Positions 2,334 through 64,000 of a stretch of DNA of 64,000 nucleotides are shown in pieces. The DNA is taken from contig CAZUHB010000013.1 of the NCBI GenBank assembly GCA_964620445.1, positions 5,077 through 69,076 of the forward strand, in the 5' to 3' direction. The notes beneath the pieces were generated by a model, which saw only the letters and a list, made by a program, of their open reading frames with translations, was not told the origin of the DNA and ran no database searches. This stretch comes from an uncultured Phycisphaerales bacterium (GTDB taxonomy: Bacteria > Planctomycetota > B15-G4 > CAYZWU01). Numbering within the stretch: the stretch's first letter is position 1; each line of letters starts with the position of its first letter. A program made the position numbers and the translations under genes.

Positions 2334-2336
2334 AAA

Positions 2337-2371
2337 GGGGCTCAGTGCGCGATACCCGCGACCGGAGCCCC
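2337..2371. terminator. Possible bidirectional terminator hairpin between convergent thiI and the M28 peptidase gene
   Basis: GGGGCTC...GAGCCCC inverted repeat (7-bp stem, long loop) directly after the thiI stop; weak. Confidence 0.25.
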
Positions 2372-2389
2372 CCCTCTTCGCGGATCGGA

Positions 2390-3586: not shown

Positions 3587-3596
3587 CGCATGTTCC

Positions 3597-5570: not shown

Positions 5571-5804
5571 GCCATTCCTTTCGGCCAAAGCTCTCAATGA
5601 TTCCAGCAGGCTCGGGGCTGCCACAACCCCTCAGAAATTGCATAATTATCAGGCTGAATCGAGCGGGTCAAGCAACGAAATCTCCGAGAATCCCTCCCGG
5701 GGAGGCGAGCAACTTTTGAGGGCGGCTTGCATTTCGTGCGGCGCGGTATTAAAGATTGAGCAGTAGAGTAACGAAGATCTCCTCTTTCGCGGAAGGAATA
5801 TCGG

Positions 5805-7097
5805 GTGAAAATTCTCATGTTCGGTTGGGAGTTCCCGCCTCGCATGACCGGAGGGCTCGGAACGGCGTGCCACGGACTGGTCAAGAGTCTCGTTGCACAG
5901 GGCGTTGACGTGAGCTTTGTCATTCCGAGCCGCGACGTCGAGGATCCCGATGATGACGGGACCGAGTCAGCGGTCTCGGCGGAGAGCAACGGCTTTCCCG
6001 AAACAGGAACCGTTCGGAGAGGGCTCTTCCGCTTGACACGGGTGCCGCCAAGCCTGAATCCTTACGCGGGCGGTCCGAAACCGATCATCCTCTCCAATGG
6101 AGATACACTGTTCCAGGAAGGCTACGATCAGGATCTCTACGGCGGCGACCTCCTCGCGGCGGTGGACAAGCTCGCCCTCCAGGCACGGACGATCGCGGCG
6201 AAACAGAATTTCGACGTGATCCACGCTCACGATTGGATGACCTTTCCCGCGGGCCTCGCCGCCCGCGAGGTGTCGGGAAAACCTCTGGTCATCCATCTCC
6301 ACTCGATCGAGTACGACCGCTGCCTCGACAGGGTCTGGCCGCCGGTTGTGGACATCGAACGGCGGGGACTCGTCGGAGCGGACCGTATCATCACCGTCTC
6401 GGCACGCAGCAAGTGGATGGTCGTGGACAAGTACGGCGTCGCGCCGGAAAAGATCACCGTCATCCACAACGGCCTGAATCGGGAGCATCTGGGCAGGCTC
6501 GAGAACGCCAAACCGATCTCCCTGCCGCCGCGCACCAAGGGCGGTCTCGTTCTATTTCTCGGCCGCATCACACCTCAGAAAGGCCCGAATCACTTCGTGG
6601 AAGCGGCCGCCAAGGTCCTGCAAGCCGAACCGCACACCGTGTTCCTTCTTGCCGGATCGGGCGACATGGTCCCCGCCCTGGTGGAGCGGACAGCCGAACT
6701 GGGCATCTCGCAGAACGTGCTCTTCACCGGATTCCTCGAAGGCGATCAGGTCCTCTGGGTGCTCGACGCCGCCGATGTTTTCGTCATGCCCTCTGTTTCG
6801 GATCCCTTCGGGATCTCCTGCCTGGAGGCGATGTACGCCAGCACTCCGGTGGTCGTATCGAACCAGTCGGGAATCTCCGAGGTCGTGAGCAACGTGATGA
6901 AAGTCGACTACTGGGACGTGGACGCGATCGCCGATGGCGTCGTGCGCCTTCTGCGCGATCCGCAGTACGCCTCCGAAATGGCGGGACGCGGTGCGGCCGA
7001 GGCGCGCACCATCACATGGGATCACCCTGCTTCGCGGTGCAAGGCGGTCTACAGGGAAGTGCTGTCCGAGTCCGGCCGCTTTCCGAACCCCGAGTAG
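5805..7097 (+). CDS. Glycogen-synthase-like glycosyltransferase (GT4/GT5 clan, archaeal-type N-terminus)
   Basis: GTG start with GGAAGGAA RBS. MKILMFGWEFPPRMTGGLG resembles archaeal/Thermotoga-type glycogen synthase N-termini, and the C-terminal half is GT-B. Confidence 0.7.
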   Translation: MKILMFGWEFPPRMTGGLGTACHGLVKSLVAQGVDVSFVIPSRDVEDPDDDGTESAVSAESNGFPETGTVRRGLFRLTRVPPSLNPYAGGPKPIILSNGDTLFQEGYDQDLYGGDLLAAVDKLALQARTIAAKQNFDVIHAHDWMTFPAGLAAREVSGKPLVIHLHSIEYDRCLDRVWPPVVDIERRGLVGADRIITVSARSKWMVVDKYGVAPEKITVIHNGLNREHLGRLENAKPISLPPRTKGGLVLFLGRITPQKGPNHFVEAAAKVLQAEPHTVFLLAGSGDMVPALVERTAELGISQNVLFTGFLEGDQVLWVLDAADVFVMPSVSDPFGISCLEAMYASTPVVVSNQSGISEVVSNVMKVDYWDVDAIADGVVRLLRDPQYASEMAGRGAAEARTITWDHPASRCKAVYREVLSESGRFPNPE

Positions 7098-7120
7098 GTC
7101 CCGACGTCGAGGATCGAAAG

Positions 7121-8293
7121 ATGGCCGATACGGTCTGCTTCTATTTCCAGGTACACCAACCCTTCCGGATCCGGCCCTTCGGATACCTCGATCACGGCAC
7201 GACCTACTTCGACGACGAACTCAACCGTTCTCACCTCTTGAGGGCGGTCAAGAAATGCTACCTCCCTGCCAATCGCCTCATGAGCCGACTTGCCGACCGC
7301 TTCGGGGACCGCTTCCGCGTCGGATACAGCATCTCCGGCGCGGCGCTCGAACAGCTTGCCGCCGACGCGCCCGAGGCGATCGAATCGTTCGCCGCCCTCG
7401 GCGCTTCGGGTGTGGCCGAATTTCTGGGCGAGACCGATTCCCATTCCCTCGCGTTCGTCTTCTCGCCCGACGAGTTCGGCGAGCAGATCGCGACCCATCG
7501 CCGGAGAACGCGGCAGCTTTTTGGCGTCGCGCCGAGGAGCTTTCGCAACACCGAATTGATCTATCGGGACGATCTCGCCCCGATCGTCGGCCGTCTCGGG
7601 TACGAGTCGGTTCTCGTCGAGGGTCTAGGTCGCCTGCTCGAGGGGAAATCGTGCCATCGCGCCTACTGGTCGGCGGGGAAGGAGGTGCGCCTGCTCCTCA
7701 AGGACTATCGCTTCTCGGACGACATCGCGTTCCGTTTCGCCGACCGGAGCTGGATCGGCTGGCCTCTCGAGCCGATCCCCTTTGCCGAAAGCCTCCGCCG
7801 GGCGCCGGGCGATTGTGTCAATCTGTTCATGGACTACGAGACCTTTGGAGAGCATCTTCTCGCCGAAACGGGAATTTTCGCCTTTTTCGAGGAGATGGCG
7901 GCCGCCTACCTCGCGATCGACGGGACGCGGATCAGCAGTCCCGGCGACGTGGCGGACAGGTTCGAGCCGAAAGACACTTACAGGGTGCGCGAGTACCTGT
8001 CATGGGCCGACGAGGCGCGCGACCTCTCGGCGTGGCTCGGCAATCCGATGCAGCAGAACGCGGCAAGGGCTCTCTATGACCTGGAGGCGGGAATCAAGGC
8101 TTCGGGGGATCCGCTTCTCTTGCGCGACTGGCGCAGGCTCACCGCGTCGGACCACCTCTACTACATGTCGACCAAGGGAGCGGCAGACGGTGTGGTTCAC
8201 GATTACTTCAGCCCCCACCCCACCCCTCACGACACCTTCGCGTCGTTCATGAACATCCTTCACGATCTGGAGACGCGGATCGCCGGCAGCTGA
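7121..8293 (+). CDS. Glycoside hydrolase family 57 protein (alpha-amylase / 4-alpha-glucanotransferase-like), short form
   Basis: MADTVCFYFQVHQPFR is the GH57 signature N-terminus. Only the C-terminal 390 aa of the 686-aa six-frame ORF is real. Confidence 0.8.
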   Translation: MADTVCFYFQVHQPFRIRPFGYLDHGTTYFDDELNRSHLLRAVKKCYLPANRLMSRLADRFGDRFRVGYSISGAALEQLAADAPEAIESFAALGASGVAEFLGETDSHSLAFVFSPDEFGEQIATHRRRTRQLFGVAPRSFRNTELIYRDDLAPIVGRLGYESVLVEGLGRLLEGKSCHRAYWSAGKEVRLLLKDYRFSDDIAFRFADRSWIGWPLEPIPFAESLRRAPGDCVNLFMDYETFGEHLLAETGIFAFFEEMAAAYLAIDGTRISSPGDVADRFEPKDTYRVREYLSWADEARDLSAWLGNPMQQNAARALYDLEAGIKASGDPLLLRDWRRLTASDHLYYMSTKGAADGVVHDYFSPHPTPHDTFASFMNILHDLETRIAGS

Positions 8294-8324
8294 CGGGCCG
8301 GAGGTGAGAGGCCTTGCGAGCGGA

Positions 8325-8831
8325 CTATTTCAACACTTCGGGGACGGTGGATTTGAGGTCCTCCGCTTCCCTGAAGCGCTTGTAGAACTCGTCCGACGGG
8401 CCGTACTCCTTGACCTGGATCTCGATCTTCTTCAAGATCGTCTCGCACGTCTTGTAGTCCCAACCGTACTCGTCCCAGTAGGAGCTCAGCTCCGGGTCGC
8501 TCACACCGTAACCGTCGCGGTTCGCCTCCTGGTCGATCCTGACGATGACGAGATAGGATTCGTCGTCGCGCTCGATCTTGGCCTCGAGCTGCCGCCTGAT
8601 CGGAAAACGCCCCACATCGGTGATCTTGTTGTAGTTCCACGAGGAGACGATCGTGCCCAGATGCGGATCGGCCTCGGAGATCCTGAACCCCTCCCGATCG
8701 ATGACGTGACAGGTCAGCTGATACAGATCGGAATAGCTCACATCTTCGACGCGGAGTTCCATCCAGTGGGAACCGCAACCGACGCAGCCCAGGGCGAGCA
8801 GGATCGTGAAAAACAAGAGAGGTCTGATCAT
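8325..8831 (-). CDS. Hypothetical lipoprotein
   Basis: Signal peptide with lipobox LALGC; acidic/aromatic mature protein with no recognisable domain. Confidence 0.55.
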   Translation of the reverse strand: MIRPLLFFTILLALGCVGCGSHWMELRVEDVSYSDLYQLTCHVIDREGFRISEADPHLGTIVSSWNYNKITDVGRFPIRRQLEAKIERDDESYLVIVRIDQEANRDGYGVSDPELSSYWDEYGWDYKTCETILKKIEIQVKEYGPSDEFYKRFREAEDLKSTVPEVLK

Positions 8832-45269: not shown

Positions 45270-45782
45270 ATGGACAAGGCAACCGAACGGATAGTGGAAG
45301 GTCTTCACAGGGCGATCGAAGCCGAGGCGGCAGGATATCACTTTTACATGATGGCGGCGCGCAACACCGACGACAAGCAGGGGAAGGAGATCTTCGAAAC
45401 GCTCGCCGACGAGGAGGTGGACCACCTGAAGTTCCTGAAATCCCAACACGCCTCCTTCCTCGCCACCGGAAAGGCCGATCCGGACGCCGTTCTGGGAAAA
45501 CCGCTCGAGCTGTCGGGCACCAATCCTATTTTCTCCGCCCAGCTCAGGGAACGGGTCAAGGATTCCCACTACGAAATGAGCGCCCTCTCCATCGGTGTGG
45601 AGCTCGAACTCAATGCGATGAACTTCTACCAGTCCGAGGCCGATGCAACGGATGACCCGGAGGTGAAGGAGTTTTACACGCGCCTCGCCGACTGGGAGTC
45701 AGGTCACTACAACGCCTTGCTGCGGGCACAGGAGGAGTTGAAGGAGGATTACTGGGCGCAGGGAGGCTTTTCGCCTTTCTAG
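45270..45782 (+). CDS. Rubrerythrin-like ferritin-fold diiron protein (no rubredoxin domain)
   Basis: Two ExxH diiron motifs (EEVDHLKF and ESGHYNA) in a four-helix-bundle-sized protein. Confidence 0.65.
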   Translation: MDKATERIVEGLHRAIEAEAAGYHFYMMAARNTDDKQGKEIFETLADEEVDHLKFLKSQHASFLATGKADPDAVLGKPLELSGTNPIFSAQLRERVKDSHYEMSALSIGVELELNAMNFYQSEADATDDPEVKEFYTRLADWESGHYNALLRAQEELKEDYWAQGGFSPF

Positions 45783-47092: not shown

Positions 47093-47405
47093 GTTCCAAA
47101 ACCTCCTTCAGGACTCGCAAATGCACGGTAATCTCGGGTGAGCCGTTTCTCGTTCCAGCCCGTCCGTATAGCACCGTTTCGTGAAAAAAAAACGGATTTT
47201 CGACGAACAGGGAATTCTAAAAAACGAACGGCACCAATGGTGCGAATGTCTCAAGATCTCGGGACCGCCCCACCGATATACTCGATGAGTATCAGAATCG
47301 TTCCCGGGCCATGGGACCGCGCCGGCGCGGAGCCGAGTCATGTTCGAACCGATCGCCCGTGGCTCTGGAGACCGGCAGCACCTCGAGGGAAGCGAAAGGA
47401 CGGAC

Positions 47406-48134
47406 ATGTACGATCTCAGGACCATGACCATCGTCGAGCTGAGCCGCCTCGGTGCCGATTTGAGCCGCCTCGGCGCCGCGTCGTCGAGCATGGAGGAGAC
47501 GGCGGGCCGGATCGTGAATTTTCTTCGCAACAGTCTCATCGATCCTGAGACGGGAGAAAGCGCCTTTGCGCTCGTCCGGTTTTTCAAGACCCACGACTAT
47601 GAGGACCTCGATACCGAAGAGCGTGCATCCGCCGAAGGGATCATGAAGGGCGAGACGATCCCGAGCGGAATGAAGTGTCTCACGCTGCTTGCGTCCACCG
47701 GTGACAAGCCGGAGTGGAACTCGCGAACGACGTCGAAAGGACACAGGGCCATTCCATTACCGAGCGAAGATTTCGTGAGCCGGTTCCCCATGATTTCCAA
47801 CCTCGTCCGGCAGTTCGGTTTCGAACTCAATGCCATCCTCGAACCCGACCCGCAATGTCTGCGTGACATGGAAGAGAGGGCCTACAACGTTTTCCATGTT
47901 CCCGTTGCCGAAGGGAGCGCCTACATCCCGGCCCAGAAGGAATTCGTGGAGCCCTGTGGAATCGAGTCGGTCCTCGGATTCGGCGGGATCATGCCCTCAG
48001 GCGATCTCTTCGCGATCATCATGTTTTCAAAGGTGGCGGTCACGATGGAGACGGCCGAGCTGCTGCGTCCACTGACCCTCAATGCCAAGATCGCGTTGCT
48101 CCAACACGATGGCGAGCGGATCTTCAACTGGTAG
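47406..48134 (+). CDS. Hypothetical protein (242 aa from M23; the ORF opens at 47340)
   Basis: Long ORF convergent with the hybrid kinase; no recognisable motifs. Confidence 0.45.
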   Translation: MYDLRTMTIVELSRLGADLSRLGAASSSMEETAGRIVNFLRNSLIDPETGESAFALVRFFKTHDYEDLDTEERASAEGIMKGETIPSGMKCLTLLASTGDKPEWNSRTTSKGHRAIPLPSEDFVSRFPMISNLVRQFGFELNAILEPDPQCLRDMEERAYNVFHVPVAEGSAYIPAQKEFVEPCGIESVLGFGGIMPSGDLFAIIMFSKVAVTMETAELLRPLTLNAKIALLQHDGERIFNW

Positions 48135-48157: not shown

Positions 48158-51064
48158 CTATGACTTCCGATCGGCGCGGCCCGATCCTGGTCCGCAGCAG
48201 CACCGGTCGGAAGATTCCGCGGAGTGTTCCTCGGGTTTCACGATGCGCTCGATCGCCTCCAGCAGTTCTTTCGGGTCGATCGGCTTGGAGAGGTAATCGT
48301 CCATTCCACCCTCGAGGCAGCGCTCGCGGTAACCGGTCAGGGCATGGGCGGTCAGGGCCAGGATCGGAATGTGCCCGCCTGTTTGGCGCTCCTTTTCACG
48401 GATGGCGGCCGTGGCTTCGAAACCGTCCATGACCGGCATCTGAATGTCCATGAGCACGAGATCGAAGGAATCGCGAGCCAGCATATCGAGGGCTTCCTTG
48501 CCGTTCCCGGCCACGGTGACCCTGTGCCCCTGCTTCTGAAGGAGTCTGACAGCCATCTTCTGGTTGACCTCGTTGTCCTCCGCCAGAAGAATGCCCAGCG
48601 GCCGTGTGAACGCGAACGGTTCGTCCCTTCCCGGTCGCTCCTCGTCAGGGCCTTCGGTCTTGTCGAAGCCCATGACGCGCAGGATCGTTTCCAGAAGCTC
48701 CGAATGAGAAAAAGGTTTGGTCAAGCAGGCGTCTATCCCGAGATCGCGCCAGCTCGAAGCCTTGCCATGGAGACCGGCCGAGGTGAGCAGGATGATCCGG
48801 GTGCCGCCGAAATCGGGGATCTTTCTGATCTTTTCCACGAGCTGGAAACCGTCCATGACCGGCATATCGCCGTCGACGAGGAGGAGGTCGATATTCTCGC
48901 GCACCACGCATGCGCGCCACATGGTGGCGATGACCGCCTTACCGCTGCTCACCACGATCGGCTCCACCTTCCATGAACGGAGTGTCTCGTCGAGAATCTG
49001 CCGGTTCGTCGCATTGTCATCGACGACGAGCACGGCGAGTTCCTTGAGCTGTTCCGGCTGGAGAGGGATGCGATCCTCGGCCGAAGTCGTGCCGATCCCG
49101 AAGCGGGCGGTGACGGAAAATGTCGACCCCCTGCCCACGTCGCTCTCCACCCTGATACGACCGCCCATCATCCGGGCCAGGTGGTGGGAGATGGCCAGAC
49201 CGAGACCGGTGCCGCCGAACTCGCGCGTCGTCGACGTGTCGGCCTGGGAAAAGTTGTCGAAGATGAGATGTTTCTTCTCCGACGGAATACCGATCCCCGT
49301 GTCGGAGACGGAGATCTCGAGCGACACCGAATCGACGAGGAATTCGCTGACAGTGATCCGGACGACGATCTCGCCGTTTTCGGTGAACTTGATCGCATTC
49401 CCGACGAGGTTGGTCAGAATCTGCCCCAATCTCACCGGATCTCCCACGAGGCACCGGGGGACGCTCTGGTGCACGAAAAGCAACATCTCGAGTTTTTTTT
49501 CGGCTGCTCGCAGAGCGAGGGGTTTCAGCGTCTTGCTGAGACACTCACTCAGCTCGAATTCGATCGATTCGATCTCCAGCTTCTGCGCTTCGATCTTGGA
49601 AAAATCCAGAATGTCGTTGATGACTCTCATCAGGCTGCCGGCGCTTTCACGAACCGTTTCGAGATACTCCCTCTGTTCCGGTGTCAATTCGGTTCTGAGG
49701 GCCAAATCGGTCATTCCGATGATGCCGTTCATCGGCGTACGGATTTCATGGCTCATGTTCGCCAGGAACTCGCTCTTCGCGCGGTTTCCGGCATCAGCAG
49801 CGTTCTTTGCGAGCCTCAGGTCTTCCTCGGCTTTTTTGCGATCGGTGATATCCTTCGCGATGATCACGATTCCTACAGGAACATCTTGCTGGTCGTGCAT
49901 CGCTGACGCGGAGAGGATGATCGGGATCTCGGCTCCGTCACAGGCGATGAGTTCGGTTTCGTGATCCTTGAGCTTTGGGCTCTTCAGGACCGAAACGATC
50001 GCACCTCGGGCCATGATGGTCGCCAGATCCTCCCCCACGAGATCATCGGGGCCGTACCGGAGCAGTTCGAGAGTGACATCGTTGACCGAACGGATCGTTC
50101 CGTCCGGATTGACGACGATCACGCAGTCGAGGAAATTGGCGATCACGTTCTCGATGTAGGATTTCGATTCGTCGAGGTCTTCCAGGATATTCAGGGTCGC
50201 TTTCTGCATGAGAGTCAGATCGCGGGTCCGTTCCTCGACCTTGTACCTGAGCTCCGCCTTGGACGTCTCCAGATCGACCCAGGTCCGGCTCAGCTGCTCG
50301 ATCGTCCTGTTGACGACCGCGCCCAGCTTGGCGATCAGCTCATTCGTCGATCCCTCGCGGACCCGCGCGTCGAGGTGCCCGTCGGAAACCCGGTTCAGCA
50401 CCTCGAAATTCTCCGACAGGCCGAGGGCGAGCTCCATGCTCGTCGATTCCATCTCCTCCACCAGTCCCTGAAGAAACGCTGCCTGCTTGTTGACGAGAAC
50501 GCCCAGCTTGGCAATGAGTTCGTTCTCCGTGCTCTCGGGAGCCCGGGCGGTGCGGTCACCCGACGCGATCCGGTTGAGGGCGTCGTAGACCTCACAGATG
50601 CCGTATGCCAGCTCCTGATGCTGGGTGGTCATGGAGTGGTAGTTCCCGGCGAATTCGTTGAGCAGATCCTGCAGCTTGATGAGGAGTTCGCTGTTCGATC
50701 CGAATTCGATCCTGCAATCCGTTTTTCCCCTGGCCAGTTCCTTGAGCATGGTGAAGGTCTGCGAAAGGCAGAGCGCCAAGTCGAGGCTCGTGTCGGCCAT
50801 CTCCTTTTCGCGTTTCTTGATCAGCCGGCTGAAATCTTTGAACTGGCTGTTGACGAGTCCCATGGTCGCGTCGAGGTCGGTATCGTCGACGCTGGAAGCG
50901 AAGTAGGCGCAATCGAGGCATGTTTCGATCTTGGAGAGGGCCTCTCCCTGGGTCTCGTCTCTACAAAGGGTACCGGAGACCAACCAGCACCGATGGTCGT
51001 CCACGCCGTACGCGGGGCACTCCGTCTTCGCGCAATCGAGATGCTCCCAGCAATAACCCTTCAT
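48158..51064 (-). CDS. Cytoplasmic hybrid sensor histidine kinase: Cys-rich N-terminal module, three tandem HAMP-like repeats, PAS, HisKA, HATPase_c and two REC domains
   Basis: MKGYCWEHLDCAKTECP... Cys cluster; repeated ELALxLS...NELIAKLG units; SHEIRTPMN H-box; two DxxxMPxMDG receiver domains; GGAGG RBS. Confidence 0.85.
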   Translation of the reverse strand: MKGYCWEHLDCAKTECPAYGVDDHRCWLVSGTLCRDETQGEALSKIETCLDCAYFASSVDDTDLDATMGLVNSQFKDFSRLIKKREKEMADTSLDLALCLSQTFTMLKELARGKTDCRIEFGSNSELLIKLQDLLNEFAGNYHSMTTQHQELAYGICEVYDALNRIASGDRTARAPESTENELIAKLGVLVNKQAAFLQGLVEEMESTSMELALGLSENFEVLNRVSDGHLDARVREGSTNELIAKLGAVVNRTIEQLSRTWVDLETSKAELRYKVEERTRDLTLMQKATLNILEDLDESKSYIENVIANFLDCVIVVNPDGTIRSVNDVTLELLRYGPDDLVGEDLATIMARGAIVSVLKSPKLKDHETELIACDGAEIPIILSASAMHDQQDVPVGIVIIAKDITDRKKAEEDLRLAKNAADAGNRAKSEFLANMSHEIRTPMNGIIGMTDLALRTELTPEQREYLETVRESAGSLMRVINDILDFSKIEAQKLEIESIEFELSECLSKTLKPLALRAAEKKLEMLLFVHQSVPRCLVGDPVRLGQILTNLVGNAIKFTENGEIVVRITVSEFLVDSVSLEISVSDTGIGIPSEKKHLIFDNFSQADTSTTREFGGTGLGLAISHHLARMMGGRIRVESDVGRGSTFSVTARFGIGTTSAEDRIPLQPEQLKELAVLVVDDNATNRQILDETLRSWKVEPIVVSSGKAVIATMWRACVVRENIDLLLVDGDMPVMDGFQLVEKIRKIPDFGGTRIILLTSAGLHGKASSWRDLGIDACLTKPFSHSELLETILRVMGFDKTEGPDEERPGRDEPFAFTRPLGILLAEDNEVNQKMAVRLLQKQGHRVTVAGNGKEALDMLARDSFDLVLMDIQMPVMDGFEATAAIREKERQTGGHIPILALTAHALTGYRERCLEGGMDDYLSKPIDPKELLEAIERIVKPEEHSAESSDRCCCGPGSGRADRKS

Positions 51065-51107
51065 GAAGCGGCCTCCGGGCGGTGTCCTTTCCACGATGAG
51101 GTTCAGA

Positions 51108-51329
51108 TCAGAAGAGGATCTGAATCTTCTTCTGTTCACCGTCGTTCTCGACAGCGAGCAGCGTCTTCCCGAGTCGTTCGCACCAGGTGCGCACATCGGC
51201 CTCGAAGGTGGGGCAATCGCCGAGAACCTCCAGTATCTGTCCCGGTTTCATGTCCGGCGCCTTGACAGCGATCTTCAAGATCGGCTGTGGGCAATTCAAA
51301 CCGAGAGTATCCAGCACCTGAACTTCCAT
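51108..51329 (-). CDS. TusA-like sulfurtransferase (SirA/YedF/YeeD family)
   Basis: LDTLGLNCPQPILK contains the CPxP active-site motif; probable start MEVQVLD. Confidence 0.65.
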   Translation of the reverse strand: MEVQVLDTLGLNCPQPILKIAVKAPDMKPGQILEVLGDCPTFEADVRTWCERLGKTLLAVENDGEQKKIQILF

Positions 51330-51382
51330 TACGCTTCTCCTGAGGCAGCCTGCACTCGGACAGTACCTGTTACAGAACTGTT

Positions 51383-52345
51383 TCAATCCGGTCTGGCGTC
51401 TAGCCTGCGCACCTTCTCCTCGAGCTCCGCGATCCGGTTCTTCAACTCGATCATCTTCAATTCCCGATTCACCGCCAGCTTGGTGAATCTCTCCATCTCG
51501 GCGATCTTCTCCTTCAAGCTTTCCTCGGCTCTCCGGCTGGCGGTGATATCCGTGTCGACTCCCCGATAACCGGTGAGCGCCCCTCCTCTGCCGAGTATGG
51601 GAGTCCCGTTTGTCAGGAGGCAGACGGTCCGCCCATCCTTGGCCCGGTTCCAGTTGACGAGGTCGTGAATCTTGTCTTTAGTCGAACAGATCTCCTTGAA
51701 TTGCTCTTCGATTTTCTCGCGGTCCTCGTCGGTCATCAGATCGAAGGGCGTCTTGCCGATGATCTCCTCCGGCGAGTATCCGAGAATCTCCTTCACGGAG
51801 CCTGAGCAATAGGTGTAGACGCCGTTCTCGTCGACCTCCCAGATCCAATCGGTCATGCTCTCCACGATATCGTGGAATCGCCTCTCCGAATTCTTCAGGT
51901 CGAGTTCGAGCGTTTTGTGATGAGTGATGTCCACGTCCATGCAAAAAACGCCCTTTACGTTCTGACCTTCGAGAATGGGAAACATGGCCGAATAGAGCCA
52001 GAGCTGGTCTCCATTCGCTCCGCGAACGAACCACTCTCGAGATTTGGGCGCCCGGCCTGTTTCGTAGATCTCTTCGATCCGGGCTTCGAATTCCGCGATC
52101 TCCGCACCGACGAAGAAGATGTTTTGAATCCGCCGCTTTCCGACAACCTCTTCGGCGTTGTATCCGAACAGCTTTTCACAGGTGCCGTTCCAGAAATGGA
52201 TGATCCCACGTCTGTCGAATGCCTGGACCGCCACCAGCGGTGTCGTTTCGAGGGCGGACTTGAAAATCGAGAGATCTCCGATTTCAAGCGGTATCTTCCG
52301 TGCTTCCTCGACGGTCGAGGTCGTATCGGGGTTGGTTGGGGCCAT
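51383..52345 (-). CDS. Dual-PAS domain sensor protein with C-terminal coiled coil and no output domain
   Basis: Two PAS folds (FDRRGIIHFWNGTCEKLFGY and VDENGVYTYCSGSVKEILGY) and a C-terminal heptad-rich tail. Confidence 0.7.
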   Translation of the reverse strand: MAPTNPDTTSTVEEARKIPLEIGDLSIFKSALETTPLVAVQAFDRRGIIHFWNGTCEKLFGYNAEEVVGKRRIQNIFFVGAEIAEFEARIEEIYETGRAPKSREWFVRGANGDQLWLYSAMFPILEGQNVKGVFCMDVDITHHKTLELDLKNSERRFHDIVESMTDWIWEVDENGVYTYCSGSVKEILGYSPEEIIGKTPFDLMTDEDREKIEEQFKEICSTKDKIHDLVNWNRAKDGRTVCLLTNGTPILGRGGALTGYRGVDTDITASRRAEESLKEKIAEMERFTKLAVNRELKMIELKNRIAELEEKVRRLDARPD

Positions 52346-55969: not shown

Positions 55970-58900
55970 TCATTCGAGAATAGAGTCTCCCTCTGATCCA
56001 AATTGCACGACGACGCTATGAGCGTCACCATCATCGACGAGAGAAACCGTACCGGATTCTTGAATCTCGCCGTCGACGCTCACACTCTCAACGTCATCCC
56101 CCGGTCCGGTCCGTTCGAAGGAGATGTCATACACCGCTGTTCCATTTCGGTAAACGATCTTGATCCTGTCCCAATCCGGTGGAAGGTGTGGGCGAAATCT
56201 CAGCTCTCCCTTTGAGCGCGTCATGCCGATGAGCGATTCCAGAATTGCCCGGTACATCCAACCGCATGATCCCGTATACCATGTCCAGCCCCCCCGCCCG
56301 CGGTAGGGCGGTCTGGAGTAGACGTCGGCAGCCGCCACATAGGGCTCCACCATGTACGTTTTGATTTTCTCGGGAGTGTCGCCGTGGTTGATCGGATTGA
56401 TCAGCGAGAGCAATTCCCAAGCGCGCTCGTTCTGTCCGAGAGCAGCGTAACCCATCACCGTCCAGACCGCCGCATGGGTGTACTGGCCGCCATTCTCTCG
56501 GACTCCGGGGACATATCCCTTGATGTAACCCGGTTCGAGTTCGGACTCATCAAAGGGAGGATCGAAGAGCTGGATGAGCTTCGCTTCCCGATCGACGAGC
56601 ATCTTGTCCACCGATTCCATGGCGATTTGCGTGCGATCATCCGCTCCCGCCCCTGACAGGGCCGCCCAGGCCTGGGGAATGGAATCGATCCTGCACTCGG
56701 AATTTTCCACCGAGCCGAGAGGTGTTCCATCATCGAAGTAAGCCCTGCGGTACCACTGGCCGTCCCAGGCATGGTTTTCAATGCTGTCCCTCAACCAACC
56801 GCTCTCCTCGGTGAGCCTGTCCAATAGTTCCCCATCACCCCGTTCCCGGGCGAGAGATCTGAATTCCTCCATTACGTGAACGAGGAAAAAGGCAAGCCAG
56901 ACGCTTTCGCCTTTCCCCTGGGCGCCGACGAGATTCATCCCGTCATTCCAGTCGCCGCAGCCCATGAGAGGCAGCCCTCGCTCCCCGAACCGGAGCGCTC
57001 TCAGGAGAGCGCGCACGCAGTGGTCGTAAAGCGTGCCAATCTCTTCGGACCGCGACGGTAAATCGTAATAGGCTTCCTCCCCGACACCGAGCGTCCGGCC
57101 GGTTATGTAGGGAATCTCCTCGTTCAGAACCGCACTGTCTCCCGTGGCCGACACGTAGCGGCACGCCGCGAGCGGCAGCCAGAGGAGGTCGTCGGAAAAA
57201 TTCGTACGGACGCCGCGACCCGACGGAGGGTGCCACCAGTGCTGGACATCTCCATCGACGAACTGCCGTTCGGCGCTGCGGATTAAGTGCTCGCGCAGGA
57301 TCGACGGATCGGCTTGAACCAGCGCCATCGAATCCTGGAGCTGGTCGCGGAACCCGAAAGCGCCCCCCGACTGGTAAAAGCCCGATCTCCCCCAGATCCG
57401 GCTGGAAAGGGTCTGGTAGAGCAGCCAACCGTTGGCAAGGAAGTTCACTGCCTTGTCGGGCGTCTCCACCTGCACGGTACGCAGCAAACGGTTCCAGTGG
57501 AGCCTCGTGGCGTTGAACGCGCGCCGCGCGGCGTTGCGCCCGCGATGGCGGCGCAGCATCCTGCGCGCCTCGTTGGAATTCCTCCCGCACCCCAGAATGA
57601 AATCGACCTCGCACGACTCACCGGGCTCGAGCGAAACAACGACCTGCAGCGCGGCGCAAGGATCGACAGCAGGGCCTGTGCGCCCCGAAAGCCCAATCCT
57701 GGACATCGCGGCCGGATCGGACATGGTCCCGTTGCGGCCGATGAACTCGGTCCGGTCGGTGGTGAACGTCCGTTCAGGATGGTTGACATCGACGAAGACC
57801 ACCCGTCCGCGAAAGTCGGTATTGAAAGAGTTGCGCGCCAGGATCGCCCCGGTCCGCGGATCGATCGAGGTGGTCACGTGCGGGCTGTTTTTCGTCCGGT
57901 GCTCACCGAGTACGAGCTCGCTATACCCGGTCACGGAGAGACGTCGTGCTCGATCCGACCTGTTGTGAAGCTGAATCGTCACGTACTTAACCGGAGCGTT
58001 CGTCGAGACGAAAACGGTCATCCTCGACGCCACACTCTCTTCGGTGTGCTCGAAAATGGTGTAGCCGAATCCGTGCCGGCAAGAATATGGCGTTGGCCCC
58101 GGTGCGGGAAGAGACGTGGGCGACCAGAAACGTCCCGACTCCTCGTCCCTGATGTAGAACGCCTCGCCGCTCCGATCGCTCACCGTATCGTTGTACCAGG
58201 GTGTGAGGCGGAATTCGTGAGCGTTCTCGCTCCACGTGTAGGACCCTCCCGACTCGGTGACGACGGTGCCAAATCCGGGATTTGCCAGCACGTTGGACCA
58301 GGGCGCAGGAGTGACCTTGCCGGGAGCGGTCACGATGACATACTCGCGCCCGCTCCGGCTGAAACCGCCCAGCCCGTTGAAGAAGGAGAGAGATCGCTCG
58401 GGAAGATCCACCTCCTCTGAAACGAGAATGGACTCATCGGCTCTTTCCGTCGGGACAAGAGACGGAGTGGATTCGAACTCGAGGCGCCGGCCGATCTGTT
58501 CAGCCAAACTGCCTCCTCCGTCGGTGATTATGATTCGCGCCACCGACTGCATCAGGATCTGATCGTCCTCGCCAATGTGTTCGATGCTCTTGACAAAGAT
58601 CGATCCCCGCAGATTCTCGAGCGAAACGTCGGTACCGGATGCAACCAGGCCCATGATCTCGTCCTGGAGAGGCTGCCTGTAGCCGGCATGCTCCTCGTTC
58701 CAGATGATCAGATCGACGGGCACGCCCTTGATGTTCCAGTAAGCGTGCGCCTGCACCAGCTGGCGCACGAGGGGCACGTTTTCCTGATCGCTGATCCGGA
58801 GCAGGACGATGGGAAGGTCTCCCGAGATGCTGTAACCCCATAGGCCCGACTGGCCGCGCTTGTTTTTCATCAGGACGGCCGGCGGCGCGCGGTGGGCTGG

Positions 58901-61900
58901 ATTGGAATAGATGATCGAGCTCGCGAGGCGGCCGAAGAGCTGGGCGTCGGCCTCGGTGGCGTTGAGCTGGCGGAGTACGACCTGGGCGTGGGTCCAGGCG
59001 AGGTCGAAAACCCGTTCCGCCAGCCGGCGGTCATGGTATTTTTCGGCCAGATCGAGAGCATGGTCCCGCGAGACGCTCATACCGGAGACGATGTCGATGA
59101 CGGCTGTTTCCTCGGGCATGATCGTCACGGTTCGCCGTACGGCAACGATCGGATCGAGGACCGAGCCCTCGGCGTTCGACAGCGCGCCCGGAGCATCCAT
59201 GGCCGCGGGGTGGGCGATCGTTCTGCAGCGACCCACGAAGCGAGCCCGGTCGGTTTCGAACGACACCTCGCCCTCGTCGGCCGGAATGGCCACAGCCGTT
59301 TCGTGGAGCGTCATCATGTGAAACATCCAGGGCGGAGTCTCATCCTTGGAGCGCTTGCGGCGCGTGCAGAGCACGGCCGGTGGCTCGCGGACGATCTCGG
59401 TCTGGACGAAGAGGTTGCTGAAAGCGGGGTGGGCCGCGTCATGCGAAGAGGGAACGAGCACGACCTCGGCATAGCTGGTGAGTTCCACGGTGCGCGGCGA
59501 ATCCGACCTGTTGGTGAGACTCACGCGCCGGAGTTCCACGTCGTCCTCGGGAGAGACAGACACCTTCATGTGCGTGTCGAAATCGCCATCTCTCCGCCGG
59601 AATTCGGCCCGCGCCTGAAGAAAGAGAGCCTGATAGTTTTCAGGCTGTCCTCGAAGAGGCTGATGGCCGGCAGACCAAACTTGTCCCGTCTCCACATCGC
59701 GCAGAAAGCAGAATGTCCCCCAGTGATCGCGTGTCGTGTCCTCGTGCCAGCGCGTCACGGCGAGATCGTTCCAGCGGCTGTATCCCCCACCGGAGTTGGT
59801 GATCATCACGCTGTACCGGCCGTTGGACAGGAGATGCACCTCGGGAATCTGCGTGTTGGGATCGTCGAAGATACGCATGAGTGCTTGCTGAGGAGCGACC
59901 GTAGGCGGGACTCCGTCGTGGTCGACTTCGTGGGGGTAGAATGGTTTCGCCTTGGGAATCCTTTCCTGAAGGAGGAGCTCTGTCGCGCGGAAGAGGGGCT
60001 CCTTCAGGAACCGTCTTCGCATGGGACGATCGAGCAGCACGTGGGCCATGGAGAGGAGACTCATTGCCTGGTGATGAGCCATGAACGAGCGGACCACGGC
60101 GTATTCCTTGTCCGGCGGACGCCGAGAGGGAGTAAAGTCGATCGCCTCGTAAAATCCAAAGTCCCCGTAAAATCCCATCTCGGCCATGCGCTGCAGGTTT
60201 GCGCAAGCGCTCCTGGGTGACACCATCAAGGCGAGCGCCGACGCGTAAGGTGCGATGACGAGATCGTCGGCCAAGTCGCGCTTGAAACCGAAACCTGGAA
60301 CGCCGAAGGAGCGGTACTGATAGTTCTTCTGCGTATCGATGGCATTGTAGCCCGACTCTGAGATTCCCCACGGGATACCGCACTGCTTGCCGTACTGCGC
60401 CTGGCGTTCGACCACAGCGCGCAGGCTGCGGCCAAGCAGGGTTCCCTCGTGGTCGGGCATGACCAGGAGGGGCATGAGATATTCGAACATCGATCCGCCC
60501 CAGGAGATCAGCGCGGTCTTACCACCCGAACGGGTCAGAAGACGCCCCAGGGCGAACCAGTGATCCTGCGCGAGATGCCCCTGGGCGATCGCCACGAAGC
60601 TGCTCAGGCGCGCCTCCGATGCGAGGAGGTCGTAGCAGCTCCCGTCGAGTCGGTGTTCGCTCACGTTGTAGCCGATGGCCAGGAGCCGGCGTTTCTTGTC
60701 GAAGATGAAATCGTAGTCGAAGTCGGAGAGCGCCCAGCACTGCGCGGCGAGCGCCTCGATCGACTCGATCCTCTCCGCCGCGTTGCGTGCTGCGGTGCTG
60801 ATGCGCTCCTCCAGGTCGGACAGCCATTGACAAGCTTCGTCGTCGGGGGCGCTGTGTTCCTCGAGACCGGCCGGTGCTTTCTCGCGAATCCTTTCGATGA
60901 TATGAAGGATGCTAGTCTCGGCGTTCGCGAGCAATCGAAGGCTCGGGACGGCATCGAGCTGATCGAGTTCCTCTCTGAGCTGGCGCGGGTCCCCTTCTGC
61001 AGCGCCATTCGGATCGAGCACGCTTGCGGCGCGAGGCAGGATATCCAGCCATGGAGCGAGACGTTCCATGTCGCTGCAAAGCTCCGCTATCTGGCGAAGA
61101 AGTGTCTTCGTCCACCAGGCCGTCTCCTCATCGAGGCTCGAACCCGCTTTCTGCTCGAAGGCGCGCACCGCCTCATCCGCGTCAGCAACCATGCCCTGCA
61201 ACTGGGAAAGTCGAGTGGGCTCCACCCGCAGCCTCTCAGCGAGCGGACGCAGTGCGTCGACTGCACTAGGATCGATCTTCTCCCTACTCTTGTCCTCCTC
61301 CCTGCGGCGCGGTGCCGCCGTGGCTTGCAGCAGTTCTACGAGCGTGTCAGCCAGACCCCCGGTCGAGGTGAGCGAAATGATCGGGGCGTCGATAATTTCG
61401 AAAAGCCCCTGGCGCAGAGTGAGCAGATGCCCGGCGAGATTTCCGCTGTCCACGGTCGACACGTAGAGCGGGTGGAGCGGTTCGAGAGTGCGAGTATCGT
61501 ACCAGTTGTAGAAATGCCGCCGGAAGCGGTCCAAGCGCCCCATTGTTTCGATCGTCGAAGCGGTCCGTTCGATGAGCGTGCCGGCAGGGATGAAACCGAG
61601 ATCGTAAGCAGAGAGGTTTGCGAGAAGCGCTAGGCCAATATTCGTGGGAGAGGTTCGGTGGGCGAGTGCCTCGGTGGGCTGCTCCTGGAAATTGTCGGGC
61701 GGCAGCCAGTTCTCGTCTGGACCGACGAATTCTTCGAAATACCTCCATGTCCGCCGCGCCGATGCCCGGAGAAAGTCTTTCTTCTTATCCGAAAGACGGA
61801 CGGTCTTTCGAATCAACGGAAGGCTCGCCCACCAGGCAATGAGGGGCGACAGAAACCAGAGTCCCAGGATGGGCGCTGCCGCTGCCAGGCTCTCGGGCCG

Positions 61901-64000
61901 CGTCCAGGCAAGCCCTGCGACAAGTGCGATGGAGAAGGCCGGTGCAGTCCACATCGAACGCAGGTGGCTCAAAAGATCGGATCGACTCGCGTCGAGCGCG
62001 TCGCTCGAGGGAGTCCATTGCAAGAGGCGCCGTCGTGTCACGAAGAGTCTCGCCAAGGTCCGAAGTATCGCGTCGAGGCAGAACATGGTTTCGAAAGGAA
62101 GCATGACCACCGTGAACAGGGCCTGCGTGAGGTTGCGCGCCACTGCGCGCGAAGCCCAGGAGAGGTGGATACCCAGCGTCACATTGCCTGGACGGCGGGA
62201 GAGATCAATCCAGGAGAGAAGGAAGGGCGTCAGAAAGATCGTTCCCACGGCCAAGAGGGTCCAGACCAGGGGTTCGGCCCAGAAAACCCATCCGACGATG
62301 AGCAGAAGGGTGAGAGCCGCCGGCACGAGACTGCGCCTCAAATTGTCGAAGATCTTCCAGCGAGACACCGCGGAGAGGGGATTAGGCGACTGGCCATCAC
62401 CTGCAGAGGGCACGCTGCCAAAAAGCCACGATGCGATCTGCCAGTCGCCGCGGATCCAGCGGTGCCGGCGGTTGACATCGACCATGTAGCGTGGTGGAAA
62501 ATCCTCGTAGAGCTGCACCGTGGTCACCAGGCCGGCTCGCGCGTGACACCCCTCGAGGAGGTCATGGCTCAGGATGCGGTTCTCGGGAAAGCGTCCTTCG
62601 AGTACACGCACAAAAGCGTCCACGTCGTAGATCCCTTTGCCGATGAACGATCCCTCGCCGAAAAGGTCCTGGTAAACGTCCGAAACGGATCGCGTGTACG
62701 GATCGATCCCGGGATCTCCCCCAAAAAGACGTAGGAACCAGGACGGGCTCGCATTGTTCATCCCCACTGCCAAACGGGGCTGAAGGATGGCGTAACCATC
62801 GAGGAGACGGTTCCCGGTTCGATCGTAGAGAGGCTGGTTGAGCGGATGGGCCATCGCTCCCGCGAGCGCCCGGGCCGCGTCGCGCGGCAACTCGGTATCC
62901 GTGTCGAGTGTGATCACGTACTTGATCTCGGACAATATCGTCGTGTCACCCACGATCATGGAAAACGGATCTCGCGAACCTCCTCGCAGGAGAGCGTTCA
63001 GATCTGAAAGCTTACCCCGCTTGCGCTCGTACCCCATCCAGACCTTTTCACGGTGATTCCATCGACGCGGTCGGTGAAGAAGAAAAAACCGGTTTCCGTT
63101 CCGTTTGCCATACCGGGCATTGAGCCGCTCAACGCCCTTTCTGGCCAGTCTGACGAGCCGATCGTCGTCCGGCATGTTCTCTTCCGACGCATCGCGAAAA
63201 TCGGTGAGGAGACAGAAGTGCACCCTCCTGTCTCTGTTCCCAAGGAAACGGATCTCCAGGCCTTCAAGGAGATCGCGCACACCAGCCGGGCTGCCGAGCA
63301 GGGTGGGAACAACGACGAGTGTGCGCGATTCTGACGGGATCCCCTTGGAGTAGTCCATGCTCGGCCGGACGTCGGGGCTGACGACCACTGTGGCGAACCA
63401 GTTGACGATCCCGACGGTGAAGTGGCTCGCGCAGAGAAGCATCAATATTCCGAGAACGAGAAGTGCGCCAAAGGGAAGACCAAGCGCTGAGCCCAGGAGA
63501 ATCACTCCTGCGGTGATGACGCCCGTGGTGAGAGTGATCGCGCCAAGGTAGAGTGGAGCCGCCCTGAGGCGACCGAATTTCCTCACACGCTTGGCAAGGC
63601 CAAGGCGAACTCCCAGACGGCGTTCCAAGGCTGGAAGCCCCTTGCCGACCAGATAGTGTCCCACGTGCCGGTTGCGGTCGTGCGCTTCAGGAGAAGTTGA
63701 ACCAGCTTTCGCTATTTCCACTACCTCCGTTGCAACCTCTGTCTCGGTGCAACCGCAGGAGCGTGCCAGGATTTCCACAACATGGCGATAGAGATCACGC
63801 GAATCGAAATCCATACGATCGTAGACGCTCGCCGGATCGGTCCGGAGAACCTTGTGGACCGCGCTAACCGATTCGACGAACTCGCGCCAGTCGATGGCTT
63901 CGAGAACGCGGAGGCTGCCGATACTGTTGCTGATCGTCACCAGATCGGCAGCCTGTTTCTGGCTCTCCGACTGGACCAGGTCTTTGATGGCCAATCCCTG
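55970..64000 (-). CDS. Cyclic beta-1,2-glucan synthase (NdvB/Cgs/ChvB-like: TM region, GT84 domain, GH94 domain); N-terminus beyond the window
   Basis: GT84 core (ILSEIKYVITLDTDTELPRDAAR, HRWIRGDWQIASWLF) and C-terminal GH94/cellobiose-phosphorylase-like regions (ISWGGSMFEYLMPLLVMP, YTHAAVW); more than 2674 aa, open at the window end. Confidence 0.85.
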   Translation of the reverse strand, partial: QGLAIKDLVQSESQKQAADLVTISNSIGSLRVLEAIDWREFVESVSAVHKVLRTDPASVYDRMDFDSRDLYRHVVEILARSCGCTETEVATEVVEIAKAGSTSPEAHDRNRHVGHYLVGKGLPALERRLGVRLGLAKRVRKFGRLRAAPLYLGAITLTTGVITAGVILLGSALGLPFGALLVLGILMLLCASHFTVGIVNWFATVVVSPDVRPSMDYSKGIPSESRTLVVVPTLLGSPAGVRDLLEGLEIRFLGNRDRRVHFCLLTDFRDASEENMPDDDRLVRLARKGVERLNARYGKRNGNRFFLLHRPRRWNHREKVWMGYERKRGKLSDLNALLRGGSRDPFSMIVGDTTILSEIKYVITLDTDTELPRDAARALAGAMAHPLNQPLYDRTGNRLLDGYAILQPRLAVGMNNASPSWFLRLFGGDPGIDPYTRSVSDVYQDLFGEGSFIGKGIYDVDAFVRVLEGRFPENRILSHDLLEGCHARAGLVTTVQLYEDFPPRYMVDVNRRHRWIRGDWQIASWLFGSVPSAGDGQSPNPLSAVSRWKIFDNLRRSLVPAALTLLLIVGWVFWAEPLVWTLLAVGTIFLTPFLLSWIDLSRRPGNVTLGIHLSWASRAVARNLTQALFTVVMLPFETMFCLDAILRTLARLFVTRRRLLQWTPSSDALDASRSDLLSHLRSMWTAPAFSIALVAGLAWTRPESLAAAAPILGLWFLSPLIAWWASLPLIRKTVRLSDKKKDFLRASARRTWRYFEEFVGPDENWLPPDNFQEQPTEALAHRTSPTNIGLALLANLSAYDLGFIPAGTLIERTASTIETMGRLDRFRRHFYNWYDTRTLEPLHPLYVSTVDSGNLAGHLLTLRQGLFEIIDAPIISLTSTGGLADTLVELLQATAAPRRREEDKSREKIDPSAVDALRPLAERLRVEPTRLSQLQGMVADADEAVRAFEQKAGSSLDEETAWWTKTLLRQIAELCSDMERLAPWLDILPRAASVLDPNGAAEGDPRQLREELDQLDAVPSLRLLANAETSILHIIERIREKAPAGLEEHSAPDDEACQWLSDLEERISTAARNAAERIESIEALAAQCWALSDFDYDFIFDKKRRLLAIGYNVSEHRLDGSCYDLLASEARLSSFVAIAQGHLAQDHWFALGRLLTRSGGKTALISWGGSMFEYLMPLLVMPDHEGTLLGRSLRAVVERQAQYGKQCGIPWGISESGYNAIDTQKNYQYRSFGVPGFGFKRDLADDLVIAPYASALALMVSPRSACANLQRMAEMGFYGDFGFYEAIDFTPSRRPPDKEYAVVRSFMAHHQAMSLLSMAHVLLDRPMRRRFLKEPLFRATELLLQERIPKAKPFYPHEVDHDGVPPTVAPQQALMRIFDDPNTQIPEVHLLSNGRYSVMITNSGGGYSRWNDLAVTRWHEDTTRDHWGTFCFLRDVETGQVWSAGHQPLRGQPENYQALFLQARAEFRRRDGDFDTHMKVSVSPEDDVELRRVSLTNRSDSPRTVELTSYAEVVLVPSSHDAAHPAFSNLFVQTEIVREPPAVLCTRRKRSKDETPPWMFHMMTLHETAVAIPADEGEVSFETDRARFVGRCRTIAHPAAMDAPGALSNAEGSVLDPIVAVRRTVTIMPEETAVIDIVSGMSVSRDHALDLAEKYHDRRLAERVFDLAWTHAQVVLRQLNATEADAQLFGRLASSIIYSNPAHRAPPAVLMKNKRGQSGLWGYSISGDLPIVLLRISDQENVPLVRQLVQAHAYWNIKGVPVDLIIWNEEHAGYRQPLQDEIMGLVASGTDVSLENLRGSIFVKSIEHIGEDDQILMQSVARIIITDGGGSLAEQIGRRLEFESTPSLVPTERADESILVSEEVDLPERSLSFFNGLGGFSRSGREYVIVTAPGKVTPAPWSNVLANPGFGTVVTESGGSYTWSENAHEFRLTPWYNDTVSDRSGEAFYIRDEESGRFWSPTSLPAPGPTPYSCRHGFGYTIFEHTEESVASRMTVFVSTNAPVKYVTIQLHNRSDRARRLSVTGYSELVLGEHRTKNSPHVTTSIDPRTGAILARNSFNTDFRGRVVFVDVNHPERTFTTDRTEFIGRNGTMSDPAAMSRIGLSGRTGPAVDPCAALQVVVSLEPGESCEVDFILGCGRNSNEARRMLRRHRGRNAARRAFNATRLHWNRLLRTVQVETPDKAVNFLANGWLLYQTLSSRIWGRSGFYQSGGAFGFRDQLQDSMALVQADPSILREHLIRSAERQFVDGDVQHWWHPPSGRGVRTNFSDDLLWLPLAACRYVSATGDSAVLNEEIPYITGRTLGVGEEAYYDLPSRSEEIGTLYDHCVRALLRALRFGERGLPLMGCGDWNDGMNLVGAQGKGESVWLAFFLVHVMEEFRSLARERGDGELLDRLTEESGWLRDSIENHAWDGQWYRRAYFDDGTPLGSVENSECRIDSIPQAWAALSGAGADDRTQIAMESVDKMLVDREAKLIQLFDPPFDESELEPGYIKGYVPGVRENGGQYTHAAVWTVMGYAALGQNERAWELLSLINPINHGDTPEKIKTYMVEPYVAAADVYSRPPYRGRGGWTWYTGSCGWMYRAILESLIGMTRSKGELRFRPHLPPDWDRIKIVYRNGTAVYDISFERTGPGDDVESVSVDGEIQESGTVSLVDDGDAHSVVVQFGSEGDSILE

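Follow-up and report, generated by a model that had tools for sequence, protein, structure and literature searches.

What a small sulfur-carrier protein does beside a cysteine-rich sensor kinase is the question raised by a three-gene operon in an uncultured Phycisphaerales bacterium. The operon lies within a 64,000-nt stretch of DNA (assembly GCA_964620445.1, contig CAZUHB010000013.1, positions 5,077-69,076 of the forward strand), which was analyzed as a whole and is called the window below. It encodes a dual-PAS protein, a TusA-family protein and a hybrid histidine kinase with a cluster of cysteines at its N-terminus. An initial annotation, made from the sequence, had suggested that carrier and kinase act together in sensing persulfide, Fe-S or redox state. 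Here we describe the cysteine cluster as a member of the two-CW family, a named domain of many signaling proteins, and show that TusA genes of one tight subfamily directly precede two-CW genes in two phyla. The intracellular sulfur and redox sensing of sulfate reducers and sulfur disproportionators is poorly known, and a conserved, co-diverging TusA partnership offers a concrete and testable handle on two-CW function.

A compact operon of three genes

The elements on which the argument rests are the following.

51383-52345, minus strand: dual-PAS protein, 320 aa, first gene of the operon (open reading frame [ORF] list and Joint Genome Institute [JGI] gene call)
51108-51329, minus strand: TusA-family protein, 73 aa from its ATG (ORF list, PF01206 and JGI)
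48158-51064, minus strand: cytoplasmic hybrid histidine kinase, 968 aa from its ATG, beginning MKGYCW (ORF list, Pfam, NCBIfam and JGI)
50891-51052, minus strand: two-CW domain, kinase residues 5-58 (NF045718 match and conservation over 193 copies)

The tight packing on the minus strand described by the initial annotation, coordinates included, was confirmed. Gaps of 53 nt (dual-PAS/TusA) and 43 nt (TusA/kinase) separate the genes, a Shine-Dalgarno-like sequence stands ahead of every ATG (GGAGG for the kinase ATG at 51064), and a consensus scan of the minus strand of the operon found no terminator-like sites. The TusA and kinase genes are probably co-transcribed. JGI calls on three metagenome contigs with an identical locus give the same products of 320, 73 and 968 aa, and the homologues of the kinase all begin a few residues ahead of the first CW. 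A longer kinase ORF of 1012 aa, starting at 51196, was rejected; it overlaps tusA, has no support from homologues and disagrees with the JGI call of 968 aa. A 12-bp inverted repeat over the TusA stop codon (51098-51128) is probably not a feature, because the RNA fold of the coding strand is no more stable than that of shuffled sequence (z -1.06), and no Rfam family matched in the window.

The cysteine cluster is a two-CW domain

The N-terminal cysteines noticed in the initial annotation are all present, with the spacing C5-x5-C11-x4-C16-x9-C26-x7-C34-x14-C49-x2-C52 and two CW dipeptides, C5W6 and C26W27. Residues 5-58 match the NCBIfam model NF045718, "two-CW domain", at 35.3 bits (E=1.1e-8), a borderline score against the cut-off of 35, and all signature residues of the family are found in the window kinase. 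Over 193 copies the seven cysteines are 96-99% conserved, and W6, W27, P17, G31, T32, Q39, G40 and K45 join them among the positions conserved at 90-99%. When divergent members are included (55-sequence alignment A3), six of the cysteines are invariant and C34 is kept in at least 90%. The window copy departs from the family consensus at F42A, E44S and I38T.

When the 63-aa module was run with HMMER against all of 1.84 billion representatives, at least 768 clusters (50% identity) came out at E≤1e-3, of which 102 reached E≤1e-10. By itself the 81-aa module returned nothing in a word-indexed search; homologues were reached through residues 1-420, the HMMER scan and the profile. Pfam contains no match to the module, and scanning 55 copies at E≤10 gave no recurrent one. 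The module profile had no meaningful match among PDB sequences, and a Foldseek search of the predicted module against the PDB found nothing. Known zinc-finger models gave no match in Pfam, PDB sequence or Foldseek searches. The same holds in Pfam and the PDB for known Fe-S binding models (ferredoxin CxxCxxCxxxCP, NreB, FNR, WhiB), a result still compatible with a new Fe-S site. With a single CxxC pair (C49-x2-C52), and with His at position 33 in just 51% of copies, the module is no zinc ribbon and lacks an obvious eighth ligand. The initial annotation had called it a non-standard input module, but the domain already bears a name. Its NCBIfam entry comes without a function, ligand, cofactor or structure that could be found in searchable literature and databases, and literature searches returned no published description of the domain or of a TusA/cysteine-kinase pairing.

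The company that the domain keeps is that of a sensor. Among 185 proteins, 155 have it at the N-terminus; in the others it is internal, C-terminal, duplicated or alone. In 99 proteins its partner domains were PAS (46), HATPase_c (38), HisKA (37), GGDEF (16), GAF (9), REC (9), MCPsignal (4), HD-GYP (3), CheW (3) and STAS (3). Since it is found ahead of kinase, GGDEF, methyl-accepting chemotaxis protein (MCP) and HD-GYP outputs, it can be taken as a genuine sensory input, and as judged from these architectures it behaves as a mobile input domain. A strongly conserved helix of residues ~59-92 (T65, Q72, R83, D84, E86) connects it to the first repeat of the kinase, in proteins with and without a TusA neighbor alike. 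Metagenome-assembled genomes (MAGs) of Desulfobacterota and Thermodesulfovibrionia often carry several two-CW paralogues. In one locus, L164 (L-numbers are labels of loci fetched from MAGs or metagenomes in profile scans), a 118-aa two-CW ORF (5001-5357) runs into the beginning of the ORF for a 701-aa multi-PAS protein (5323-7428) within a long run of signaling genes; a two-CW sensor may have been split or frameshifted here.

TusA genes of one subfamily precede two-CW genes in two phyla

The TusA-like protein with an intact CPxP cysteine that had been read from the sequence matches PF01206 at 64.4 bits (gathering threshold 28.6), with C13-P-Q-P at residues 13-16. Three of its cysteines are invariant in the subfamily: C13 (CPQP), C39 (GDCPTF) and C50 (WCERL). 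The subfamily is a tight one, with 82% mean column identity in alignment A2. Equivalog cut-offs are not reached for either TusA (NF001423, 43.6 bits against 78) or YedF (NF008242, 34 bits against 79). By these scores the protein is a member of a distinct TusA-family subfamily and an orthologue of neither TusA nor YedF. Its relatives in the PDB are 1DCJ and 3LVJ, and YedF (1JE3); the "DCP" cysteine is common to YedF.

Adjacency was followed in both directions. In the forward direction, the module profile was run over one genome per GTDB species; 199 loci were found and 79 kept, all of them from MAGs of Nitrospirota/Thermodesulfovibrionales or Desulfobacterota. When all ORFs of the kept loci were searched with the window TusA, 19 matches appeared (E 1e-26 to 1e-36). 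In 18 cases TusA comes immediately before a two-CW gene on the same strand, in the remaining one it comes directly after (L073), and none occurs elsewhere in the flanks. Among two-CW genes with enough upstream DNA this amounts to 18 of 81, in two phyla, at gaps of 17-332 nt. Under stricter gene calls TusA precedes 15/81 two-CW genes, 0/26 other signaling genes and 1/694 other genes, the single case being a spurious ORF inside a TusA/two-CW gap. In the reverse direction, metagenomes were scanned with the TusA subfamily profile; 80 of the resulting 311 loci were retained, 77 of them with enough downstream DNA, and a two-CW domain follows TusA in 45 of the 77, starting 25-495 nt after it (median 137).

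The L073 locus, from a Thermodesulfovibrionales MAG, has TusA copies (5736-5960 and 8126-8350) on both sides of one two-CW kinase, and uvrC comes after the second copy.

What lies upstream of the pair differs between loci and may encode an MvhA-like hydrogenase subunit, MvhD, TopA, AccA, a PAS-PAS protein or others; the Nitrospirota pairs, L059 and L073 have unrelated upstream genes. Only L080, a locus from a related organism with a TusA 86% identical to that of the window, retains the order PAS-PAS, TusA, two-CW/HAMP/PAS. Of the PAS/TusA/kinase neighborhood that the initial annotation proposed to look for in other genomes, the TusA/two-CW part recurs in both directions, but the dual-PAS gene is conserved only in this close relative; it is peripheral and stands outside the conserved unit.

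Four MAGs each hold two diverged TusA/two-CW pairs. In the two clearest examples, L003/L008 and L037/L020, orthologues in other genomes are 85-96% (TusA) and 93-95% (sensor) identical, versus 69-82% and 59-60% for the paralogues within one genome. Because orthologues across genomes are closer than paralogues within a genome, the adjacency has been kept in separate, old paralogous lineages, and the co-divergence of these lineages therefore suggests that TusA and two-CW sensors are cognate pairs.

Other partners of the TusA subfamily

The kinase is not the only gene beside which this TusA is found. A recurrent string in Desulfobacterales consists of a hydrogenase small subunit (PF01058), an MvhA-like large subunit (PF00374), TusA, a two-CW kinase and one or two single-domain receivers (L016 at 825-5902, L020, L037, L050, L063, L065 and L079); these receivers are separate genes, whereas the window kinase carries two fused ones. 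TusA (at ~4001-4222) also stands directly after an MvhA-like large subunit with no kinase downstream in L091, L105, L106, L108, L109, L112, L118, L127, L128, L137 and L138, and in L147 it is MvhD (PF02662; 555-1094) that lies upstream of TusA. TusA genes preceded by MvhA or MvhD without a kinase therefore suggest a separate connection of TusA to hydrogenase or Hdr. Elsewhere, with no two-CW gene present, TusA is followed by a 118-aa DsrE/DsrF-like protein (L083 4384-4740, L097 2130-2486, L150 3047-3403 and L156 4384-4740). In two metagenome loci the gene after TusA encodes a 117-aa protein with a LysR-type helix-turn-helix (PF00126; L130 1429-1782 and L132 1313-1666).

Since it is also attached to Mvh-type NiFe hydrogenase or DsrE-like genes, TusA is not exclusively a kinase accessory. 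It seems to be a hub shared by several partners, of which the kinase is the most frequent. The TusA/two-CW pair is alone in the window, because neither a hydrogenase nor a DsrE gene occurs anywhere in its 64 kb.

Architecture of the kinase and its surroundings

Behind the two-CW domain and its helix, the kinase is built as follows.

50264-50788, minus strand: three tandem HAMP-like repeats, residues ~93-267 (repeat z-scores, Pfam HAMP)
49835-50152, minus strand: PAS domain, residues 305-410 (PAS_9, E=3e-12)
49103-49780, minus strand: kinase core, HisKA 429-493 (H439 in SHEIRTP) and HATPase_c 541-654 (Pfam)
48674-49036, minus strand: receiver 1, residues ~677-797, D731/K783 (Response_reg in two stretches)
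48248-48592, minus strand: receiver 2, residues 825-939, D873/K927 (Pfam)

The order of repeats, PAS domain, kinase core and two receivers given by the initial annotation was borne out. HisKA with its histidine, HATPase_c and receivers with their aspartates make the protein an ordinary hybrid histidine kinase of the HisKA type, with H439, D731/K783 and D873/K927 all intact. It has no transmembrane segment, again as first described; the maximum 19-residue Kyte-Doolittle mean is 1.46. The repeats themselves are real, ~58 aa each and head-to-tail, with pairwise z-scores of 6.7-19.8 against shuffles, but their identity as HAMP domains is only borderline. With the Pfam HAMP cut-off at 25 bits, the full kinase reaches 23.3 bits and the repeat region by itself 30 bits. 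Taken singly, repeats 2 and 3 match at E ~0.016 each and repeat 1 does not match, and a precomputed PF00672 (HAMP) match is present in some homologues. The three repeats are thus perhaps best described as weakly HAMP in character. After receiver 2, the kinase C-terminus holds a run of three cysteines (SDRCCCGPGSG, residues 955-957, window 48176-48184); the sole close orthologue, L080, is truncated.

The dual-PAS protein contains two PAS domains (Pfam; TIGR00229 matched twice in NCBIfam) and a C-terminal coiled coil, without an output domain. Convergent with the kinase is a 264-aa ORF (47340-48134, plus strand), which JGI also calls as a gene; 23 nt separate the two stop codons, and the ORF belongs to no family of Pfam or NCBIfam and lacks homologues among the fetched loci. 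As would fit an anaerobe, a rubrerythrin gene (45270-45782, plus strand) is located 2.4 kb downstream of the kinase. The close surroundings of the operon hold no genes of sulfur metabolism. The right end of the window is occupied by a 2949-aa GH94/glycoamylase-type protein (55970-63994, minus strand).

A proposed cysteine sensor with a cognate carrier, and its alternatives

Gene anatomy, family membership, a general signaling-input role and a conserved, co-diverging adjacency are the ground on which a mechanism can be proposed. Beyond them we infer a physical interaction between TusA and the module, a direction of sulfur transfer, a type of cofactor and a sensed signal. The reading that we prefer, with a probability of roughly 45%, is that of a cysteine sensor, cofactor- or thiol-based, which would read sulfur or redox state via its cognate TusA. 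The input of this soluble two-component sensor would be the N-terminal two-CW domain of ~55 residues, whose seven invariant cysteines most likely form either a bound metal or Fe-S center or a set of redox- or sulfane-reactive thiols. The TusA encoded 43 nt upstream would be the cognate partner of the kinase, and its cysteine may swap sulfane sulfur, or thiol/disulfide state, with the cysteine module. The conserved helix would rigidly couple the module to the three HAMP-like repeats, the PAS domain, the dimerization/histidine phosphotransfer and catalytic (DHp/CA) core and the two receivers, so that the signal may run from the module by way of the helical linker and the HAMP-like array to the kinase, whose activity would report the loading of a cytoplasmic sulfur relay or a coupled redox state.

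Several findings weigh against this reading. About three quarters of the two-CW genes (63/81) have no TusA neighbor, including that of L033, the closest full-length relative of the kinase (40% identity). Linked and unlinked two-CW sequences are indistinguishable except at position 29 (I/V versus F), a difference that is probably a lineage effect. No fusion of TusA with a two-CW domain was seen among 261 proteins, and stand-alone two-CW proteins have no TusA nearby and neighborhoods without a common theme. Conversely, ~40% of the loci with the TusA subfamily (32/77) have no two-CW gene, and among these 32 TusA follows an MvhA-like NiFe hydrogenase large subunit in 13 and precedes a DsrE-like gene in four. 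The Fisher p of the forward adjacency under stricter gene calls, 8e-15, is uncorrected for shared ancestry, and part of the signal is common descent, because 18 of 31 linked pairs share MvhA as the upstream gene. Two AlphaFold predictions of the module reached a predicted local distance difference test score (pLDDT) of only 65-67, and the geometry of a metal site is unreadable because of this low confidence.

Much of this would be accommodated if the two-CW domain were an autonomous Fe-S or metal redox sensor, with TusA as no signaling partner at all, co-expressed either to supply sulfur when the cluster matures or is repaired, or as a member of a sulfur or hydrogen-metabolism regulon under control of the kinase. 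This account, possible but in our judgment doubtful, would cover the likeness of linked and unlinked domains, the many two-CW genes without TusA, the TusA genes beside Mvh-type hydrogenase or DsrE-like genes without a kinase, and the Desulfobacterales string. The genome matches of the forward scan all come from anaerobic lineages, a distribution that could fit an oxygen-sensitive cofactor and could equally reflect phylogeny. The autonomous-sensor account sits less well with the fact that the pair is kept in the window and in Nitrospirota loci where hydrogenase genes are absent, and co-diverging paralogous pairs suggest cognate partners rather than one housekeeping carrier; moreover, we know of no case in which TusA serves as an Fe-S assembly factor for specific client proteins. 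Small cysteine-rich modules are often structural Zn sites, and the module might likewise be a zinc cap or dimerization element, with the PAS domain as the real sensor and the TusA adjacency as inherited synteny without function. The separate PAS domain and the shared MvhA gene upstream of linked pairs, a sign of partial common descent, speak for this; yet a module with one CxxC pair, no conserved eighth ligand and no Pfam zinc-finger match, shuffled in sensor-like fashion among many output types and adjacent to TusA in two phyla, behind many upstream genes and in duplicated pairs, makes it improbable. That TusA works mainly with Mvh-type hydrogenase or Hdr, while the two-CW kinase senses H2 or the redox state of an electron carrier and controls those genes, is suggested by the MvhG-MvhA-TusA order, which recurs with and without a kinase, and by MvhD upstream in L147. 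The window would then keep only a remnant of that cluster, which is quite improbable given that its 64 kb hold no hydrogenase gene and that the Nitrospirota pairs, L059 and L073 have unrelated genes upstream.

The cognate-carrier reading is therefore kept here as a working model, and the initial annotation is partly supported overall: the module is no known zinc ribbon and the TusA/kinase adjacency is conserved in relatives, two points on which that interpretation could have failed. The pairing, repeated in many anaerobic bacteria of the sulfur cycle, suggests an undescribed mode of sulfur or redox sensing, and the recurrent hydrogenase-TusA-kinase-receiver string suggests that H2 metabolism, sulfur trafficking and signaling are linked. 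A sulfur-relay protein as a dedicated accessory of a histidine kinase would, to our knowledge, be the first case. A wider proposal is tentative and rather unlikely to hold in full. It takes the TusA subfamily and the two-CW domain as an undescribed sensory module with a dedicated persulfide carrier as co-sensor of the seven-cysteine input, which would directly wire the cytoplasmic sulfur relay, and in Desulfobacterales the Mvh-type hydrogenase, into the two-component, cyclic di-GMP and chemotaxis signaling of sulfate-reducing and sulfur-disproportionating bacteria. The module may in that case hold an Fe-S cluster beside reactive thiols, by analogy only with ferredoxin:thioredoxin reductase, whose seven conserved cysteines form a [4Fe-4S] cluster beside a redox-active disulfide.

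Comparison with known systems

The closest family is NF045718 itself, with which window residues 5-58 share both CW dipeptides and the seven-cysteine register of 193 aligned copies. In overall layout, the kinase recalls Aer2 of Pseudomonas aeruginosa, a soluble receptor with an N-terminal poly-HAMP array followed by a PAS domain. Like receptors of the Aer2 type, it is cytoplasmic and has head-to-tail HAMP-like units upstream of PAS; unlike Aer2, its array is preceded by a cysteine-rich input and feeds a hybrid kinase instead of an MCP signaling domain, and its repeats have a 58-aa period with only borderline HAMP scores. There is no sequence relationship to Aer2.

Cysteine-based sensing is known from several unrelated proteins. 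CstR, SqrR/BigR and FisR are one-component DNA-binding regulators whose two or three cysteines react directly with low-molecular-weight persulfides. The switching proposed here, by cysteine thiols reacting with sulfane sulfur, would be similar in chemistry, but CstR, SqrR and FisR are without sequence relationship to the window module, and we know of none in the group that works through a kinase or through a TusA carrier of its own. NreB and AirS are sensor kinases with cysteine-ligated Fe-S clusters, and FNR- and WhiB-type regulators can be placed beside them. The window kinase resembles NreB and AirS in being cytoplasmic and in having conserved cysteines in its input. It differs from NreB in that the latter holds four cysteines inside a PAS domain, whereas the window protein holds seven in a separate module of ~55 residues; NreB, AirS, FNR and WhiB share neither sequence nor fold relationship with that module.

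On the side of the carrier, TusA is known from the relays IscS-TusA-TusBCD and TusA-DsrEFH-DsrC. The window TusA has the fold family and the CPxP active-site cysteine of these relay proteins and of YedF, and some members of its subfamily likewise stand beside DsrE-like genes. The sHdr-associated TusA and DsrE form a further TusA sulfur relay (PMC11094781). In contrast to TusA and YedF, the window subfamily stays below the equivalog cut-offs and has three invariant cysteines, and in contrast to the relays its commonest neighbor is a signaling protein and not a sulfurtransferase. The nearest published precedent that we found for sulfur carriers encoded together with a two-component system is in Bacillus licheniformis, where one gene cluster encodes homologues of DsrE and TusA beside the sulfide-responsive NreBC (PMC9918477).

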